10,702 nucleotides of DNA, taken from the IMG/VR virus record IMGVR_UViG_2693429676_000015; one strand, given 5' to 3'. This document shows, piece after piece, positions 5,426 to 10,702 of this stretch; position 1 is the first letter of the stretch, and each line of letters opens with the position of its first letter. The notes under the pieces are model-generated. The model was not told the DNA's origin. It searched no databases and was given only the letters and a program-made list of their open reading frames with translations. Position numbers and translations under genes: made by a program. Source of the DNA: a virus (taxonomy: Duplodnaviria > Heunggongvirae > Uroviricota > Caudoviricetes).

Positions 5426-5636
5426 ATGGCAAAAGTATTTACACAGGAAGAGCGGGAAAAAATTAAGGGGCAGGTTGTTGAACTCGTACGCCAGAGTGGG
5501 CGCGAGACGTTACGACAACTGGAAGCTAAAACCGGGGCGACAAGATATTTAATAAGCGTTCTCGCCAGAGAGCTGGTTGCCAGTGGGGATGTATACAACT
5601 CTGGCTACGGGTTATTCCCGTCTGAACAGGCTCGTA
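5426..5636 (+). pseudogene. 5' portion of a phage gene (MAKVFTQEEREKIKGQVVELVRQSG...), interrupted at the N at 5637
   Basis: ATG at 5426 with a G-rich Shine-Dalgarno. Positions 5446-5636 are identical to 6577-6767 (copy 3). After the N at 5637 the sequence switches to the antisense of an IS3-family orfA. Confidence 0.4.
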
Positions 5637-5637
5637 N

Positions 5638-5993
5638 TTTTTCAGCGACTCCTGTGCAAAATACGCTGTTGCTTTTTTTAATATATCTCGCTCAAGGCGA
5701 GCTTCATTTAACGCCTTACGCAGTTGCAGAATTTCAGATTCCAGTTCAGCCACCGTGCGGGAACCAGGAGTACCGAGCCCTTTTCTGGCGGCGGTAACCC
5801 ATTGTCCTAAAGTGCCTTCAGGAAGAGATAATCGGGAAGCGCCTTCACTGATCGAAAGTTGATTTTCAGGAACCGTTCTGACAGCTTCGGCTTTGAACTC
5901 TTTAGAGTAACGTTGGGTTTTTCTGCTCATTATTAGCTCCTTCTGATGCCATTCTATTTCAGGAAGGAGTGTCCGTTAAACTCAGGCTACCTC
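5638..5993 (-). mobile_element. IS3-family insertion sequence fragment (left end plus N-terminal part of orfA; IS600-like from memory)
   Basis: Minus-strand ORF MSRKTQRYSKEFKAEAVRTVPENQLSISEGASRLSLPEGTLGQWVTAARKGLG...LERDILKKATAYFAQESLK is a typical IS3-family OrfA (HTH plus leucine zipper). The element end reads TGAGGTAGCC... on the minus strand near 5993. It is truncated at the N at 5637. Confidence 0.7.
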
Positions 5994-6384
5994 AAAAATT
6001 AAAGGGCAGGTTGTTGAACTTGTACGTCTGAGCGGTCGCGAGACGTTGCGGCAACTGGAAGCCAAGACAGGTGCGACAAGATATCTGATGAGTGTTCTCG
6101 CCAGAGAGCTGGTTGCCAGTGGCGATGTATACAACTCTGGTTACGGGTTATTCCCGTCTGAACAGGCGCGTAAGGACTGGCAAAACGCCCGCAAAAAACT
6201 CTCAAGGGCAAATCTGAAGAAACCATCTGTGGTTGATCCTGACCTTATCTGGTCATTACCAGACGGAGAAATACGCCGCTACGACAGGCGTCAAAACATA
6301 ATCTGTAGCGAGTGCCGGAAGAGCGAAGCTATGCAGCGTGTACTGGCTTTCTATCAGGGTAATTTTCAGAAGGTGCTGTTGTGA
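5994..6384 (+). pseudogene. 5'-truncated divergent paralogue of the same phage gene (copy 2), preceded by the IS3-family end
   Basis: Aligns to copy 1 and copy 3 from ...KIKGQVVEL to the stop, with scattered nucleotide differences (roughly 5-8% by eye) and a few amino-acid changes. No start codon, because the IS end abuts it. Confidence 0.5.
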
Positions 6385-6456
6385 GCCAAATTAACAATCG
6401 GAACTTCGTGAAGAGAAAGCATAATCCAAAATCTGAATAATTAAGTTCAGCACTGT

Positions 6457-6571
6457 GGTGATGCTGCCAACTTACTGATTTAGTGTATGATGGTGTTTTT
6501 GAGGTGCTCCAGTGGCTTCTGTTTCTATCAGCTGTCCCTCCTGTTCAGCTACTGACGGGGTGGTGCGTAAC
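6457..6571 (+). mobile_element. insA: IS1 left-end fragment (inverted repeat plus the first 20 codons of insA), truncated by the N run
   Basis: ggtgatgctgccaacttactgatttagtgtatgatgg... and the encoded MASVSISCPSCSATDGVVRN match the IS1 left end and InsA N-terminus as I recall them. The sequence stops at NNNNN (6572-6576). Confidence 0.8.
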
Positions 6572-6576
6572 NNNNN
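6572..6576. other. Run of 5 N (assembly gap or scaffold join); a single N also occurs at 5637
   Basis: Literal n characters in the sequence. Confidence 0.95.
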
Positions 6577-6979
6577 GGAAGAGCGGGAAAAAATTAAGGG
6601 GCAGGTTGTTGAACTCGTACGCCAGAGTGGGCGCGAGACGTTACGACAACTGGAAGCTAAAACCGGGGCGACAAGATATTTAATAAGCGTTCTCGCCAGA
6701 GAGCTGGTTGCCAGTGGGGATGTATACAACTCTGGCTACGGGTTATTCCCGTCTGAACAGGCTCGTAAGGACTGGCAAAACGCCCGCAAAAAACTCTCGA
6801 GGGCAAAGCTGAAGAAACCATCTGTGGTTGATCCGGACCTTATCTGGTCATTACCAGACGGAGAAATACGCCGCTACGACAGACATCAGAACATAATCTG
6901 TCGCGAGTGCCGGAAGAGTGAAGTTATGCAGCGTGTACCGGCTTTCTATCAGGGTGATTTTCAGGAGGCGGTACTGTGA
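6577..6979 (+). CDS. 3' portion (copy 3) of the phage gene seen at 5426; with copy 1 it would encode a protein of about 140 aa with a winged-helix-like segment and a CxxC motif
   Basis: Positions 6577-6767 are identical to 5446-5636. Reading frame is open to the TGA at 6977-6979. The ORF-track product 6512..6979 is a chimera with the InsA N-terminus across the N run. Confidence 0.5.
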
Positions 6980-7036
6980 GTGAAATTAGCTATCAGGCTT
7001 CAATTACCGCTGGCATTCGCATCAAAGGAGAGGAGC

Positions 7037-7393: not shown

Positions 7394-7607
7394 TCAAGGT
7401 TATTTCTGGAAGTCAAGTCGTGAGTGATGAGGACTAACAAATACGGTGAACTCGATAAAGAGATTCAGGACGAACTGGAGGCCAGGAATGATTGACAAAT
7501 CACCAAGTGAGTTCAGCTACAAAGATTTATTGTCATAACGGGTTATGAGATCGACTTGGTGCGTGATATTCTTCGGGCCAGTTTGCTATGCGCCACCATG
7601 AGATGTT

Positions 7608-9440
7608 ATGGCCCGCATGTTTGATACATTAGGATTTTACATTATGAATGTGCAACATTTTGATTTTTTTACAGATAATGAGTTTTCTAATCTGGAAAGA
7701 TATCAAACTTGTAAAGCCATGGCCAAAGGTTATGCGGGCAATTACAAAACCGGGCAGTCAAGGTTGATGCATGCCCGCTCATACTGCTTCAGCATCGTAG
7801 CTGCATATTGGGATACCCTTGCAAAAAAGCAAAAAAGCAGCATTAAAATGAGGGCAGTACCGCACACTGTTTACATAGAAGACATTCCATGTGATGCACG
7901 CGAGCTCGCTGAACGAACAGGTGAGCTTATTGCTCAATTTCCGGCGGAGGACGCTGGATATCTGATTGGGTCAATTTATACGGTAATGCTGCCATCCGCT
8001 TACCGTTCGGAATTGGGGGCTTACTATACCCCCCCACCTTTGGTAGCGCGTCTCTTGGACCTGGCTGAAAAGTCTGGTGTTGATTTTTCTCATGCATCGG
8101 TTATTGATCCTGCGTGTGGTGGCGGTGCATTTTTGGCACCAGTAGCCATTCGAATGTTAAAAAAAGACAAGGGGTCTTCCCCTGAATGGATGTTGAGGAG
8201 AATCAGTCGTCGTTTAAAGGGGATAGAAATCGATCCATTTGCGGCTTGGATGAGTTTGGTATTGCTCGAATCTGTACTAATGCCACTATGTGTAAAGGTA
8301 AAACGTAGATTGCCTGAAGATACAATTATTGTTGCTGATGCGCTTCAGCAAGATAAATTTTCTGGTTATGATCTTGTGGTAGGGAATCCGCCTTACGGAC
8401 GTGTCACTCTCGATATTAAAACGAGAGAAAAATATTCTCGTTCGTTATTTGGTCATGCAAATCTATATGGATTGTTCACCGACTTAGCTGTTCGCATGGT
8501 TAAAGAGAAAACAGGAGTTATTGCATTTCTTACGCCAACTTCTTTTCTTGGTGGGCAGTATTTCACCGCGCTGCGAACCCTTTTGACCGAAAAAACTACT
8601 CCGTATGCCCTTGATTTCGTCACTGACAGGGATGGGGTCTTTGACGATGTTCTCCAGGAAACAATGTTGACAGCATTCAAGGCGGGAGAACATAAAGTTC
8701 GGGCCCAGGTATCCTCACTTGTCCCTAAGGGGTTGAACAAAGCAAAAATTGAGAAAATAGGTAATGTTGATATAGAAAAAGGTGGAGCAACGTGGCTTTT
8801 GCCACGCGTTAAAGATGATGCCTGTTTTCTTAATGTATTAAAACAGATGTCTACGCGTTTAGCTGATCTGGGATACTCAGTCTCTACAGGTCAGTTAGTC
8901 TGGAATCGATTTAAGTCGCAGTTGCGTACGACGAAAGGAAAAAATAGCTACCCATTAGTCTGGGCGGAATCAATAACTTCAGCTGGTTTTCGTTTTAGTG
9001 CAGACAGAAAAAATCATGTTCCCTATATCGATATAACCCCACAACAGGGTTTCCTTGTGACAAAATCTGAATGTGTGCTTGTTCAGCGGACAACATCGAA
9101 GGAACAGGACAGAAGGATTTTAGCGGCAATTTTACCTCAGGGATTTATAGATGAAACTGGTGGCGTAGTAGTTGAAAACCATATTAATATTGTATATTCA
9201 AACGGATTGTTCTCTGCGGTTCGCCCTGATGTTATTGATATGCTACTTAATTCGCATGTTGTCGATCGGGCGTTCAGGTGTATAAGCGGAAGTGTTGCTG
9301 TTTCGGCCTATGAATTGAATTCAATCCCGTTGCCTTCTCTGGAGCAGGTGATGGAGATTCAATCGTTAATTGATGCTGGCGTCCACAGACGGATTATTGA
9401 GAGAACTATCGCTGGTTTCTATGGAGTGATGATTGCATGA
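7608..9440 (+). CDS. N6-adenine DNA methyltransferase, gamma-class (Eco57I/TaqI-like motif order), 610 aa; start could instead be the ATG at 7643
   Basis: Motif X GAYYTPPPLV (aa 137-146, nt about 8016-8045), motif I IDPACGGGAFL (aa 166-176), motif IV VVGNPPYG (aa 257-264, NPPY at nt 8386-8397), then about 340 aa of C-terminal, presumably target-recognition, sequence. Confidence 0.85.
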   Translation: MARMFDTLGFYIMNVQHFDFFTDNEFSNLERYQTCKAMAKGYAGNYKTGQSRLMHARSYCFSIVAAYWDTLAKKQKSSIKMRAVPHTVYIEDIPCDARELAERTGELIAQFPAEDAGYLIGSIYTVMLPSAYRSELGAYYTPPPLVARLLDLAEKSGVDFSHASVIDPACGGGAFLAPVAIRMLKKDKGSSPEWMLRRISRRLKGIEIDPFAAWMSLVLLESVLMPLCVKVKRRLPEDTIIVADALQQDKFSGYDLVVGNPPYGRVTLDIKTREKYSRSLFGHANLYGLFTDLAVRMVKEKTGVIAFLTPTSFLGGQYFTALRTLLTEKTTPYALDFVTDRDGVFDDVLQETMLTAFKAGEHKVRAQVSSLVPKGLNKAKIEKIGNVDIEKGGATWLLPRVKDDACFLNVLKQMSTRLADLGYSVSTGQLVWNRFKSQLRTTKGKNSYPLVWAESITSAGFRFSADRKNHVPYIDITPQQGFLVTKSECVLVQRTTSKEQDRRILAAILPQGFIDETGGVVVENHINIVYSNGLFSAVRPDVIDMLLNSHVVDRAFRCISGSVAVSAYELNSIPLPSLEQVMEIQSLIDAGVHRRIIERTIAGFYGVMIA

Positions 9441-10519
9441 ATCTGCCTGTTGTTCCCCCATTGAATGTTATCCGGGAAAGATTACAATTAATTTTCCCTG
9501 AAGGGACTGAGAATCGTGGATATTTAATTCGGGAAATAGCTGCAAAAACAATTTTTGTCATGTTTTATGCTGGTGCGGTTGAGGGGCTGGGGCGATGGAT
9601 AAGGCCCAGCCAGGTTGTAAGTATGGGAGATTCGCAGGCTGCTCTTACTGATGATGCGTCCAGAGAAAGCTGGGTAAAGATGACTTTCTCTAAACAAAAG
9701 ATAAGGCCTGCTGATGCATGGTATGCGGAAAATACGCGTGAGCCAATACGTGATGAAACTATAAAAAATGGCCTAATACCTTGCAATGCAATTGTTGAGC
9801 GTAAAGGTATACCCACCACATCCTCTCGTCCTCGTTACAGTTTGAATCGCTCTTTTGCAGCACTCTTTGATGCCGGGCTTGAAGGAGATTCGCTGCTGAG
9901 TGCAATAAGTTCCTGGCAAGAAAATCATTTGAACAAAGCCGCTCTTGCTAGGTTGCGTTTATTGAAATCAGGGGCAGTGATTGCTGCTGATGCCGTAGTC
10001 GTCACTTTCCCAAATGGAGAGAAGAGAACTTTAGCTCCGGGCCCGTCAAGTACAATAGCTAAGGCCGTCATCGAAGTTTTTGCTCCTAATTTTCTTAAGA
10101 ATCCAACTGTGCTCTGGTTGTCTGAATCCGGGAATAAAGTTGTTGCTCAGGATGATGTATTGGCAAAAGCATTGGGGCTGAATATTGATGCCTCAAAAGC
10201 ACTTCCAGATATTATTTTGATTGATTTGGGAGAGGACCGAACGGGTTCGGACATGCTTGTAGTTTTCACTGAAGTAGTTGCGACAGATGGGCCTATAAAC
10301 AGGGAACGAAAAGTTACTCTCACTCATTTGGCTATTGACGCTGGGTTCAGCGAGAAAAATCTTGCATTCCTTACGGCATTTATGGACAGAAGTGCTCTGC
10401 CTTTTAAAAAGGCAATACCAGAATTGGCGTGGGGATCTTATGCATGGTTTGCTTCTGAACCGGAGCACTTAATTGATCTTCGGGATGGTTATCCGGTAAA
10501 GATCAGCCAGAGAAAATGA
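9437..10519 (+). CDS. Putative restriction endonuclease partner of the methyltransferase (360 aa); BsuBI/PstI-like family is a tentative guess
   Basis: Start ATG overlaps the methyltransferase stop (ATGA at 9437-9440), indicating translational coupling. No methyltransferase motifs. Size and context fit a Type II REase. The N-terminal segment (VIRERLQLIFPEGTENRGYLIREIAAKTIFVMFYAGA) resembles what I recall of BsuBI/PstI-family N-termini. There is a possible acidic cluster at LIDLGED...FTEVV. Not verified. Confidence 0.5.
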   Translation: MNLPVVPPLNVIRERLQLIFPEGTENRGYLIREIAAKTIFVMFYAGAVEGLGRWIRPSQVVSMGDSQAALTDDASRESWVKMTFSKQKIRPADAWYAENTREPIRDETIKNGLIPCNAIVERKGIPTTSSRPRYSLNRSFAALFDAGLEGDSLLSAISSWQENHLNKAALARLRLLKSGAVIAADAVVVTFPNGEKRTLAPGPSSTIAKAVIEVFAPNFLKNPTVLWLSESGNKVVAQDDVLAKALGLNIDASKALPDIILIDLGEDRTGSDMLVVFTEVVATDGPINRERKVTLTHLAIDAGFSEKNLAFLTAFMDRSALPFKKAIPELAWGSYAWFASEPEHLIDLRDGYPVKISQRK

Positions 10520-10671
10520 CCAAAGTTTGATATCCGCCACGCCCTGAAGGATGGGGGTTTTACGGTGCACTGGATAAAAAATCGGTTTCATAGATTTGCC
10601 CACCGTGGTATACGCCTGCGATAAAAACTTTATTGTCATCAACGGCAAAAGCAATAATTGTTCTGTGGCGG

Positions 10672-10702
10672 GGTGATGCTGCCAACTTACTGATTTAGTG
10701 TA
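10672..10702 (+). mobile_element. IS1 left terminus (first 31 bp); the element continues beyond the window
   Basis: ggtgatgctgccaacttactgatttagtgta is identical to the start of the internal IS1 fragment at 6457 and to the IS1 left inverted repeat as I recall it. Same orientation as the IS1 end at 1-30. Confidence 0.8.

Follow-up and report, generated by a model that had tools for sequence, protein, structure and literature searches.

A probable Type II restriction-modification cassette of the PstI/BsuBI family in a degraded lambdoid prophage of Shigella sonnei

Does the adenine methyltransferase gene of a decaying enterobacterial prophage, together with the gene that begins within its stop codon, constitute a restriction-modification (RM) system, and which DNA sequence would such a system recognize? 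This question is raised by a stretch of 10,702 nucleotides (nt), IMG/VR virus record IMGVR_UViG_2693429676_000015 (Caudoviricetes), which is referred to here in its entirety as the window. An original prediction for this DNA had proposed a Type II RM module, in which a methylase gene is followed by a translationally coupled gene for a BsuBI/PstI-type nuclease. We conclude, with a probability of roughly 0.88, that the genes at positions 7644-9440 and 9437-10519 form a classical two-gene Type II (IIP-like) RM system of the PstI/BsuBI family, which resides as a cassette of approximately 3 kb (from about 7525 to about 10525) in a degraded lambdoid prophage of Shigella sonnei. The proposal is borne out by Pfam and PADLOC matches, the relationship of the nuclease to the structurally solved enzyme SdaI, the fold of the methylase, the RefSeq names of the proteins and the coupling of the two genes.

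Judged from its sequence, the pair is ordinary and intact, and comprises an adenine methylase gene and, behind it, a gene for a PstI/BsuBI-family nuclease. Both genes are uninterrupted, and the window proteins retain every column that is invariant among the homologues aligned, 50 for the nuclease and 44 for the methylase. Part of this picture is already known. The two proteins have the accessions WP_000113425.1 and WP_001053102.1. RefSeq calls the nuclease a “BsuBI/PstI family type II restriction endonuclease” and gives the methylase the name “HsdM family class I SAM-dependent methyltransferase”; public annotation thus gives the nuclease family rightly, and defence-system models cover both proteins. 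The pair, with products of 598 and 360 amino acids (aa), represents an uncharacterised large branch of the PstI/BsuBI family.

Domain structure of the nuclease and the methylase

The restriction endonuclease gene (9437-10519, plus strand) encodes a protein of 360 aa that matches both namesake Pfam domains of the BsuBI/PstI family. Residues 10-172 (9464-9952) correspond to the N-terminal helix-turn-helix (HTH) DNA-binding domain PF17728 (BsuBI_PstI_RE_N; E 1.2e-30, 106.6 bits versus a cut-off of 27), and residues 188-349 (9998-10483) to the C-terminal catalytic domain PF06616 (BsuBI_PstI_RE; E 9.3e-45, 152.2 bits versus a cut-off of 27), of which profile positions 2-152 of 154 are covered. The PADLOC model REase_II PDLC03589 matches the protein from end to end (E 3e-128).

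Among solved structures, SdaI is the only one that matches the nuclease, by sequence as well as by fold. SdaI (2ixs) is the sole significant sequence match in the PDB (phmmer, E 1.8e-16, residues 96-349), and a Foldseek search with the predicted structure of the nuclease likewise yields SdaI (E 5.3e-15, probability 1.00) as the only match below 1e-3. The AlphaFold model, which was built on 50 homologues, is of moderate confidence, with a predicted local distance difference test score (pLDDT) of 79 and a predicted template modelling score (pTM) of 0.51. The two proteins share some 19% identity in the structural alignment, and the TM-score reaches only 0.40-0.45, most likely on account of a differing placement of the domains and the moderate confidence of the model.

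Within the catalytic domain, P257-D258 (10205-10210, plus strand) and E279 (10271-10273, plus strand) are invariant. Together with V281, G285 and R291 they are conserved throughout the 50 homologues of the nuclease subfamily and in R.EcoGIII, the nuclease of a PstI-like system discussed below; P286 is invariant in an alignment of 14 nucleases and nearly so in the alignment of 50. The resulting PD...E.V...GP core aligns with a PD...E.V segment of SdaI, and from membership in the PD-(D/E)xK class we infer that the PD...E.V residues would be catalytic. The domain matches show the nuclease to consist of a predicted HTH DNA-binding domain and a PD-(D/E)xK-type domain, an architecture that has been solved for SdaI. 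The resemblance of the N-terminus to BsuBI/PstI-type enzymes, which had been suggested tentatively, is confirmed by both Pfam domains and by SdaI. The accompanying remark that the partner protein has no obvious HTH does not hold, as residues 10-172 match the HTH domain of this very family.

The methyltransferase gene (7644-9440, plus strand) encodes a gamma-class N6-adenine enzyme of 598 aa, as assigned by Pfam, PADLOC and an AlphaFold model, its start being taken from homologues. The mechanically called open reading frame (ORF) is slightly longer (7608-9440, plus strand, 610 aa), and the RefSeq protein also starts at 7608. In the numbering of the longer frame, the motifs occur in the order X, I and IV: motif X (GAYYTPPP) starts at residue 137 (8016-8039, plus strand), motif I (DPACGGGAFL) for the binding of S-adenosylmethionine (SAM) at residue 167 (8106-8135, plus strand), and the catalytic motif IV (NPPYG) at residue 260 (8385-8399, plus strand). 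These motifs are invariant among the homologues; for motif I the D and both G residues are invariant even when M.EcoGIII is included, and for motif IV the NPPY residues. The two ORFs, the three motifs with their order and the ATGA overlap between the genes had all been read correctly in the original prediction.

The methylase scores 51.4 bits against the Pfam family Eco57I (cut-off 25.3) and 37.6 bits against N6_Mtase (cut-off 20.4), and the PADLOC model MTase_II PDLC03338 matches it over the full length (E 3e-299). Both proteins of the pair are thus placed far above curated cut-offs by the Pfam profile search that had been suggested as a check. The AlphaFold model of the methylase (pLDDT 87.9, pTM 0.85) finds its best fold matches in CamA, M.BseCI and M.TaqI (E 1e-17 to 1e-21). 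Its motifs and its predicted structure thus assign the methylase to the gamma class of N6-adenine enzymes, with a fold like that of TaqI and CamA. In the model, a helical domain at the N-terminus is followed by a TaqI-like catalytic domain and, at the C-terminus, by a target-recognition domain.

The translation start most likely is not the ATG at 7608 but the one at 7644, which yields the protein of 598 aa. This assignment is based on the fact that nearly all homologues are 593-598 aa long and begin at the equivalent of M13, that the frame of the upstream ATG is lost in relatives, where a 1-nt indel in Kluyvera and Klebsiella throws it out of frame, and that AGGA (7631-7634) and ATG 7644 are kept in all eight genera aligned. 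The choice of the start codon also bears on the N-terminal extension of about 130 aa in front of motif X, which had been noted as unexplained. The extension is present, yet it is in part an artefact of the start codon and in part a conserved domain of the family: it probably consists of 12 untranslated residues, a conserved helical domain of some 95 residues and the segment FP.EDAGYLIGSIYTVMLP.

The alpha-helical domain covers approximately residues 1-98 of the 598-aa protein (7644-7940, plus strand), is modelled with helices at 16-31, 37-62 and 83-96, and contains residues that are invariant across 44 homologues. It has no match in Pfam, and a profile of 12 sequences retrieved no PDB entry at E values up to 10. 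The models of Type I M subunits and of other methylases align with the window protein only from about residue 100-101 onwards, at the segment FP.EDAGYLIGSIYTVMLP, and therefore the helical domain occupies the place of the N-terminal region that the Type I M subunits possess themselves.

Operon structure, leader and mobility of the cassette

The junction of the two genes (9423-9440, plus strand), which is defined by the sequence and by homologous loci, combines a GGAG (9423-9426), located 10 nt ahead of the nuclease start and inside conserved Y-G-V codons of the methylase, with an ATGA stop/start overlap (9437-9440). This arrangement is widespread. In about 77 of 80 loci from Proteobacteria and beyond, the methylase gene lies directly upstream of the nuclease gene on the same strand. 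Across 82 homologous loci the genes overlap by 4 nt in 39 cases and by 1 nt in eight, and in 23 cases they lie 0 to +4 nt apart. The proposed coupling gains strength from this survey, since the 4-nt overlap recurs in 39 of the 82 loci and most of the others lie between -1 and +4 nt.

The absence of a gene for a controller (C) protein had likewise been pointed out, and this observation stands. No small ORF for an HTH controller is found inside the conserved cassette; the neighbouring genes vary from carrier to carrier and, in the carriers examined, are phage genes.

The organization of the operon suggests how the system may work. The methylase would modify the adenine within a short palindrome wherever this occurs in the DNA of host and prophage, and the nuclease would cut unmarked copies of the same palindrome on incoming phage or plasmid DNA. 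The order of expression would be set by the operon, such that synthesis of the nuclease follows and depends on translation of the methylase, because the nuclease start overlaps the methylase stop and the GGAG lies within the last codons of the methylase. Loss of the cassette should be toxic, a side effect that might help to keep the prophage remnant in the species. The scheme assumes that the genes are expressed in the lysogen.

A conserved 5′ non-coding region (7525-7643, plus strand), identified by alignment of homologues, precedes the methylase gene and includes the AGGA at 7631-7634, 9 nt before ATG 7644. These nearly 120 nt travel with the cassette: they are nearly identical in S. sonnei, E. 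coli, Kluyvera and Klebsiella, and phage DNA further upstream differs. They are partly conserved in Citrobacter and Enterobacter and have diverged in P2-like carriers. The near-identity of this leader among S. sonnei, Kluyvera and Klebsiella contrasts with a divergence of about 11% between the encoded proteins and with unrelated phage DNA on the flanks.

The 214-bp leader that had been described contains all of its reported elements, namely a TTGACA hexamer at 7492, a GGAGG at 7477 and a 16-codon ORF starting at ATG 7488. Their suggested role as promoter and leader ORF does not stand, as TTGACA and the ORF are not conserved in the nearest cassettes, where homology begins only at about 7485-7525. 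A consensus scan of the plus strand upstream of the methylase gene revealed no sigma-70-like site, an Rfam scan of the window no family, and the predicted RNA fold of 7525-7660 is no better than that of shuffled sequences (z = -0.9). A function of the leader as a regulatory element is consequently unsupported, given the lack of conserved elements and of a sigma-70, Rfam or fold signal. The ribosome-binding site accounts for only some of the conserved 120 nt.

The exact protein sequences carry the name Shigella sonnei and are found on at least 1000 contigs. Among 5426 complete E. coli genomes the locus is present in two, in one of them within a lambdoid prophage adjoining potC. In a survey from 2026, the 994 genomes of S. 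sonnei that were covered contained 982 Type II systems, and the species was described as uniform in this regard (PMC13293514); the count fits the window pair being the resident Type II system of S. sonnei, and the system itself is unnamed there.

Homologues with 45-90% identity extend across Proteobacteria and beyond. In lambdoid prophages of Kluyvera, Klebsiella, Citrobacter and Enterobacter the pair sits after the replication genes, and in P2-like prophages of Serratia and Erwinia it lies between the gpA replication gene and the portal gene. By these comparisons, the pair is a mobile cassette that occupies variable slots of lambdoid and P2-like enterobacterial prophages. The P2-like carriers are represented by Serratia fonticola (L089, 6001-8876) and Erwinia billingiae (L091, 6001-8885), the phage backbone of which is unlike that of the lambdoid carriers. 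At three further loci (L023, L025 and L078) the nuclease is closely related to that of the window (46-60% identity), yet the methylase encoded in front of it shares only about 27% identity with its window counterpart, which suggests that methylase partners may have been exchanged within the family.

Known relatives, recognition sequence and rival explanations

The closest well-studied counterpart is EcoGIII, a PstI-like Type II system in the Stx2 prophages of E. coli O104:H4, O103, O111 and O145. EcoGIII methylates and cuts CTGCAG, and its specificity and regulatory effects have been shown experimentally (PMC6602927, PMC3893438). The window pair resembles EcoGIII in several respects: both are prophage-borne in E. 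coli/Shigella, both combine a gamma-class adenine methylase with a BsuBI/PstI-family nuclease, and in EcoGIII, as carried by the Shiga toxin (Stx) phage TL-2011c, the methylase gene also comes first and overlaps the nuclease gene by 4 nt. Moreover, the window proteins have their nearest neighbours in the PADLOC clusters of EcoGIII, since the second-best models of the window proteins (PDLC03227 and PDLC03420) are the best models of M.EcoGIII and R.EcoGIII. The pairwise alignments with EcoGIII span the target-recognition region of the methylase and most of the nuclease.

On the other hand, each protein is only about 26% identical to its EcoGIII counterpart. M.EcoGIII (459 aa in TL-2011c) is devoid of the N-terminal helical domain and of the region of the GAYYTPPP-type motif X, both of which are present in the window methylase, and R.EcoGIII comprises 317 aa compared to 360 aa. 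EcoGIII adjoins the cI repressor gene, whereas the window pair sits after replication genes. With a protein identity of 26-28%, near-identity to EcoGIII, or its being an orthologue of EcoGIII, was rejected. A DNA search of 50,697 phage records returned no match to the pair, and no phage record reaches 60% protein identity.

PstI and BsuBI, the namesakes of the family, consist of methylases of about 500 aa and nucleases of about 320 aa, whose genes are transcribed divergently. The window system shares with them the methylase class and the strong matches to both nuclease domains, but its genes form a tandem, are coupled in translation and encode longer proteins in both cases. A model of fused methylase-nuclease enzymes (PADLOC PDLC03359, 840 positions), which presumably are YenI-like, is matched by the window methylase in its N-terminal part and by the nuclease in its C-terminal part, and EcoGIII matches both parts strongly. 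Unlike these fusions, the window system is made of two separate polypeptides.

Mildly interesting about the RM pair is its recognition sequence, along with the identity of a putative near-universal methylation mark of S. sonnei. As the most likely target we propose CTGCAG or a close relative with a TGCA core, at about even odds in our estimate. The suggestion is made because the nearest characterised relatives are EcoGIII for both proteins, with CTGCAG as its site, and SdaI for the nuclease, with CCTGCAGG.

Several points weigh against our reading, partly against the pair as a working system and partly against the proposed target. Expression in the lysogen is assumed, as the consensus scan recognised no promoter upstream of the methylase. 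The literature consulted (methylomes of S. sonnei and of BsuBI/PstI systems, supplements of RM surveys) yielded no biochemical or methylome report on the pair. Identity to the CTGCAG enzymes amounts to only about 26%, and the same family includes SdaI, whose site is 8 bp long. Palindromes of 6 bp were counted in 86 loci (0.94 Mb) and in 76 homologous cassettes (loci L003-L091), without a control set; on this basis CTGCAG is not avoided in the 76 cassettes (87 observed, 101 expected) or in the flanks. Finally, very efficient plating on two S. sonnei strains has been described for phage R18C (PMC6823313), which is cut by PstI in vitro and had been propagated on E. coli K-12. Its plating would argue against restriction at CTGCAG, but poor plating of the phage on K-12 confounds the comparison too much for it to be used.

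In the same palindrome counts, general avoidance is visible for most sites in loci and cassettes. Among sites with sizeable counts, the 76 cassettes are poorest in AGATCT, with 15 copies observed against 57 expected, and in CTCGAG, with 42 against 98, again without a control set.

These observations lend some weight, though less than an even chance, to the view that the RM system is of the same kind and that the site of the 598-aa/360-aa subfamily is another one: a different NTGCAN-type palindrome, CCTGCAGG or CTCGAG. SdaI recognizes CCTGCAGG, a site that is both different and longer, and it belongs to the same family. The low identity to EcoGIII in both proteins, the nuclease being about 40 residues longer than R.EcoGIII and having an extra N-terminal segment, the depletion of CTCGAG and AGATCT rather than CTGCAG in the cassettes and the good plating of a phage with PstI sites all agree with such a view. 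For CTGCAG, however, it counts that CTGCAG-type clusters are the nearest neighbours of both proteins among Type II models, and that the palindrome statistics lack a control set and show a general avoidance of most sites. Reports of PstI isoschizomers from enterobacteria and pseudomonads are frequent, and this matches the distribution of the cassette. Tentatively, the uncharacterised 598-aa/360-aa branch may even have a site unlike CTGCAG, that is, a new specificity on the two-domain scaffold of SdaI and PstI.

Other rival explanations concern the role of the pair rather than its target. It seems unlikely to us that the pair persists chiefly as a selfish addiction module, which stabilizes the prophage remnant and defends against phages only secondarily, even if its near-universal retention in a clonal species inside a decaying prophage, the toxin-antitoxin modules beside it and the behaviour of a mobile cassette in different phage backbones are in keeping with it. 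Addiction is compatible with defence, and the two cannot be separated by sequence analysis; besides, near-universality in S. sonnei may simply result from clonal descent. A silent or inactive nuclease, which would leave the methylase as a solitary epigenetic enzyme, is very improbable. S. sonnei abounds in pseudogenes and insertion sequence (IS) elements, the prophage around the pair has decayed (IS1, IS3-family fragments, a truncated parE), no promoter was recognised and R18C is not obviously restricted. Yet the 360-aa ORF is of full length and retains every residue that is invariant in the family, including the PD...E.V core, its exact sequence occurs on at least 1000 contigs, and the signals for translational coupling are intact.

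An affiliation of the methylase with a different type of defence system, such as a BREX-, MADS- or Type IIG/IIS-like one, is effectively refuted by the Pfam, NCBIfam and PADLOC scores. The methylase gives weak partial matches to the models of PglX, MAD2 and the Alw26I/Eco31I/Esp3I methylases, but these cover the shared methylase core only, and their scores fall far below the NCBIfam cut-offs (PglX 78.7 versus 353.5 bits, MAD2 37.2 versus 900, Alw26I-type 21.1 versus 720). No other genes of such systems are adjacent in any locus examined, and the partner clearly belongs to the Type II nucleases. The fallback of the original prediction, some other methylase-linked defence or epigenetic module in case the partner were not a nuclease, is therefore not needed: Pfam, the PDB sequence match and the fold all identify the partner as a Type II nuclease, and the recommended structure prediction of the 360-aa protein retrieved the SdaI fold, so that a nuclease-like fold and a family match are both in hand.

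Flanking features and significance

Downstream of the cassette lies the 3′ remnant of a RelE/ParE toxin gene (10560-10671, minus strand), which is outside the RM cassette. In E. coli FDAARGOS_943 this gene is intact and accompanied by a ParD antitoxin gene, and homology to the window ends at 10671. The last 31 nt (10672-10702, plus strand) represent an IS1 terminal inverted repeat that is cut by the end of the window. They repeat without a difference the initial 31 nt of the IS1 end at 6458-6571, and for that IS1 end 4963 E. coli genomes contain matching elements annotated as IS1 transposase. Thus, IS1 begins 152 nt downstream of the nuclease gene and truncates the parE toxin gene. The IS1 that had been placed directly behind the pair does lie downstream of it, but at this distance and with the parE remnant in between.

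Elsewhere in the window, the minus strand of 973-2007 carries in a row the genes for a ParE toxin (PF05016, 973-1263), a PaaA2-type antitoxin (PF21217, 1263-1457) and an HTH_3 protein (1477-2007), a layout which we take to be that of the three-gene paaR2-paaA2-parE2 toxin-antitoxin module of E. coli prophages. The region 5446-6994 harbours three partial copies of one DUF977-like gene segment: 5446-5636 and 6577-6767 are 100% identical, and the similarity between 5994-6399 and 6589-6994 is 90%. Between the copies lie an IS3-family orfA fragment (minus strand, approximately 5637-5945) and the IS1 left end (6458-6571), and N bases occur at 5637 and at 6572-6576. The repeats look like scaffold joins of a draft assembly at IS copies and not like a real triplication.

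The RM pair opens no new question, yet it provides a textbook case of an RM cassette that moves among variable slots of lambdoid and P2-like prophages, as well as of translational coupling as a means of control in place of a C protein. In practical terms, the pair probably is the one Type II system in almost all S. sonnei isolates. Knowledge of its target would aid the transformation and engineering of S. sonnei, the choice or modification of therapeutic phages and the reading of methylation signals in long-read data. Should the site turn out to be other than CTGCAG, the system would account for a species-wide N6-methyladenine mark and transfer barrier that has so far been unmapped, as nearly every S. 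sonnei carries the pair.

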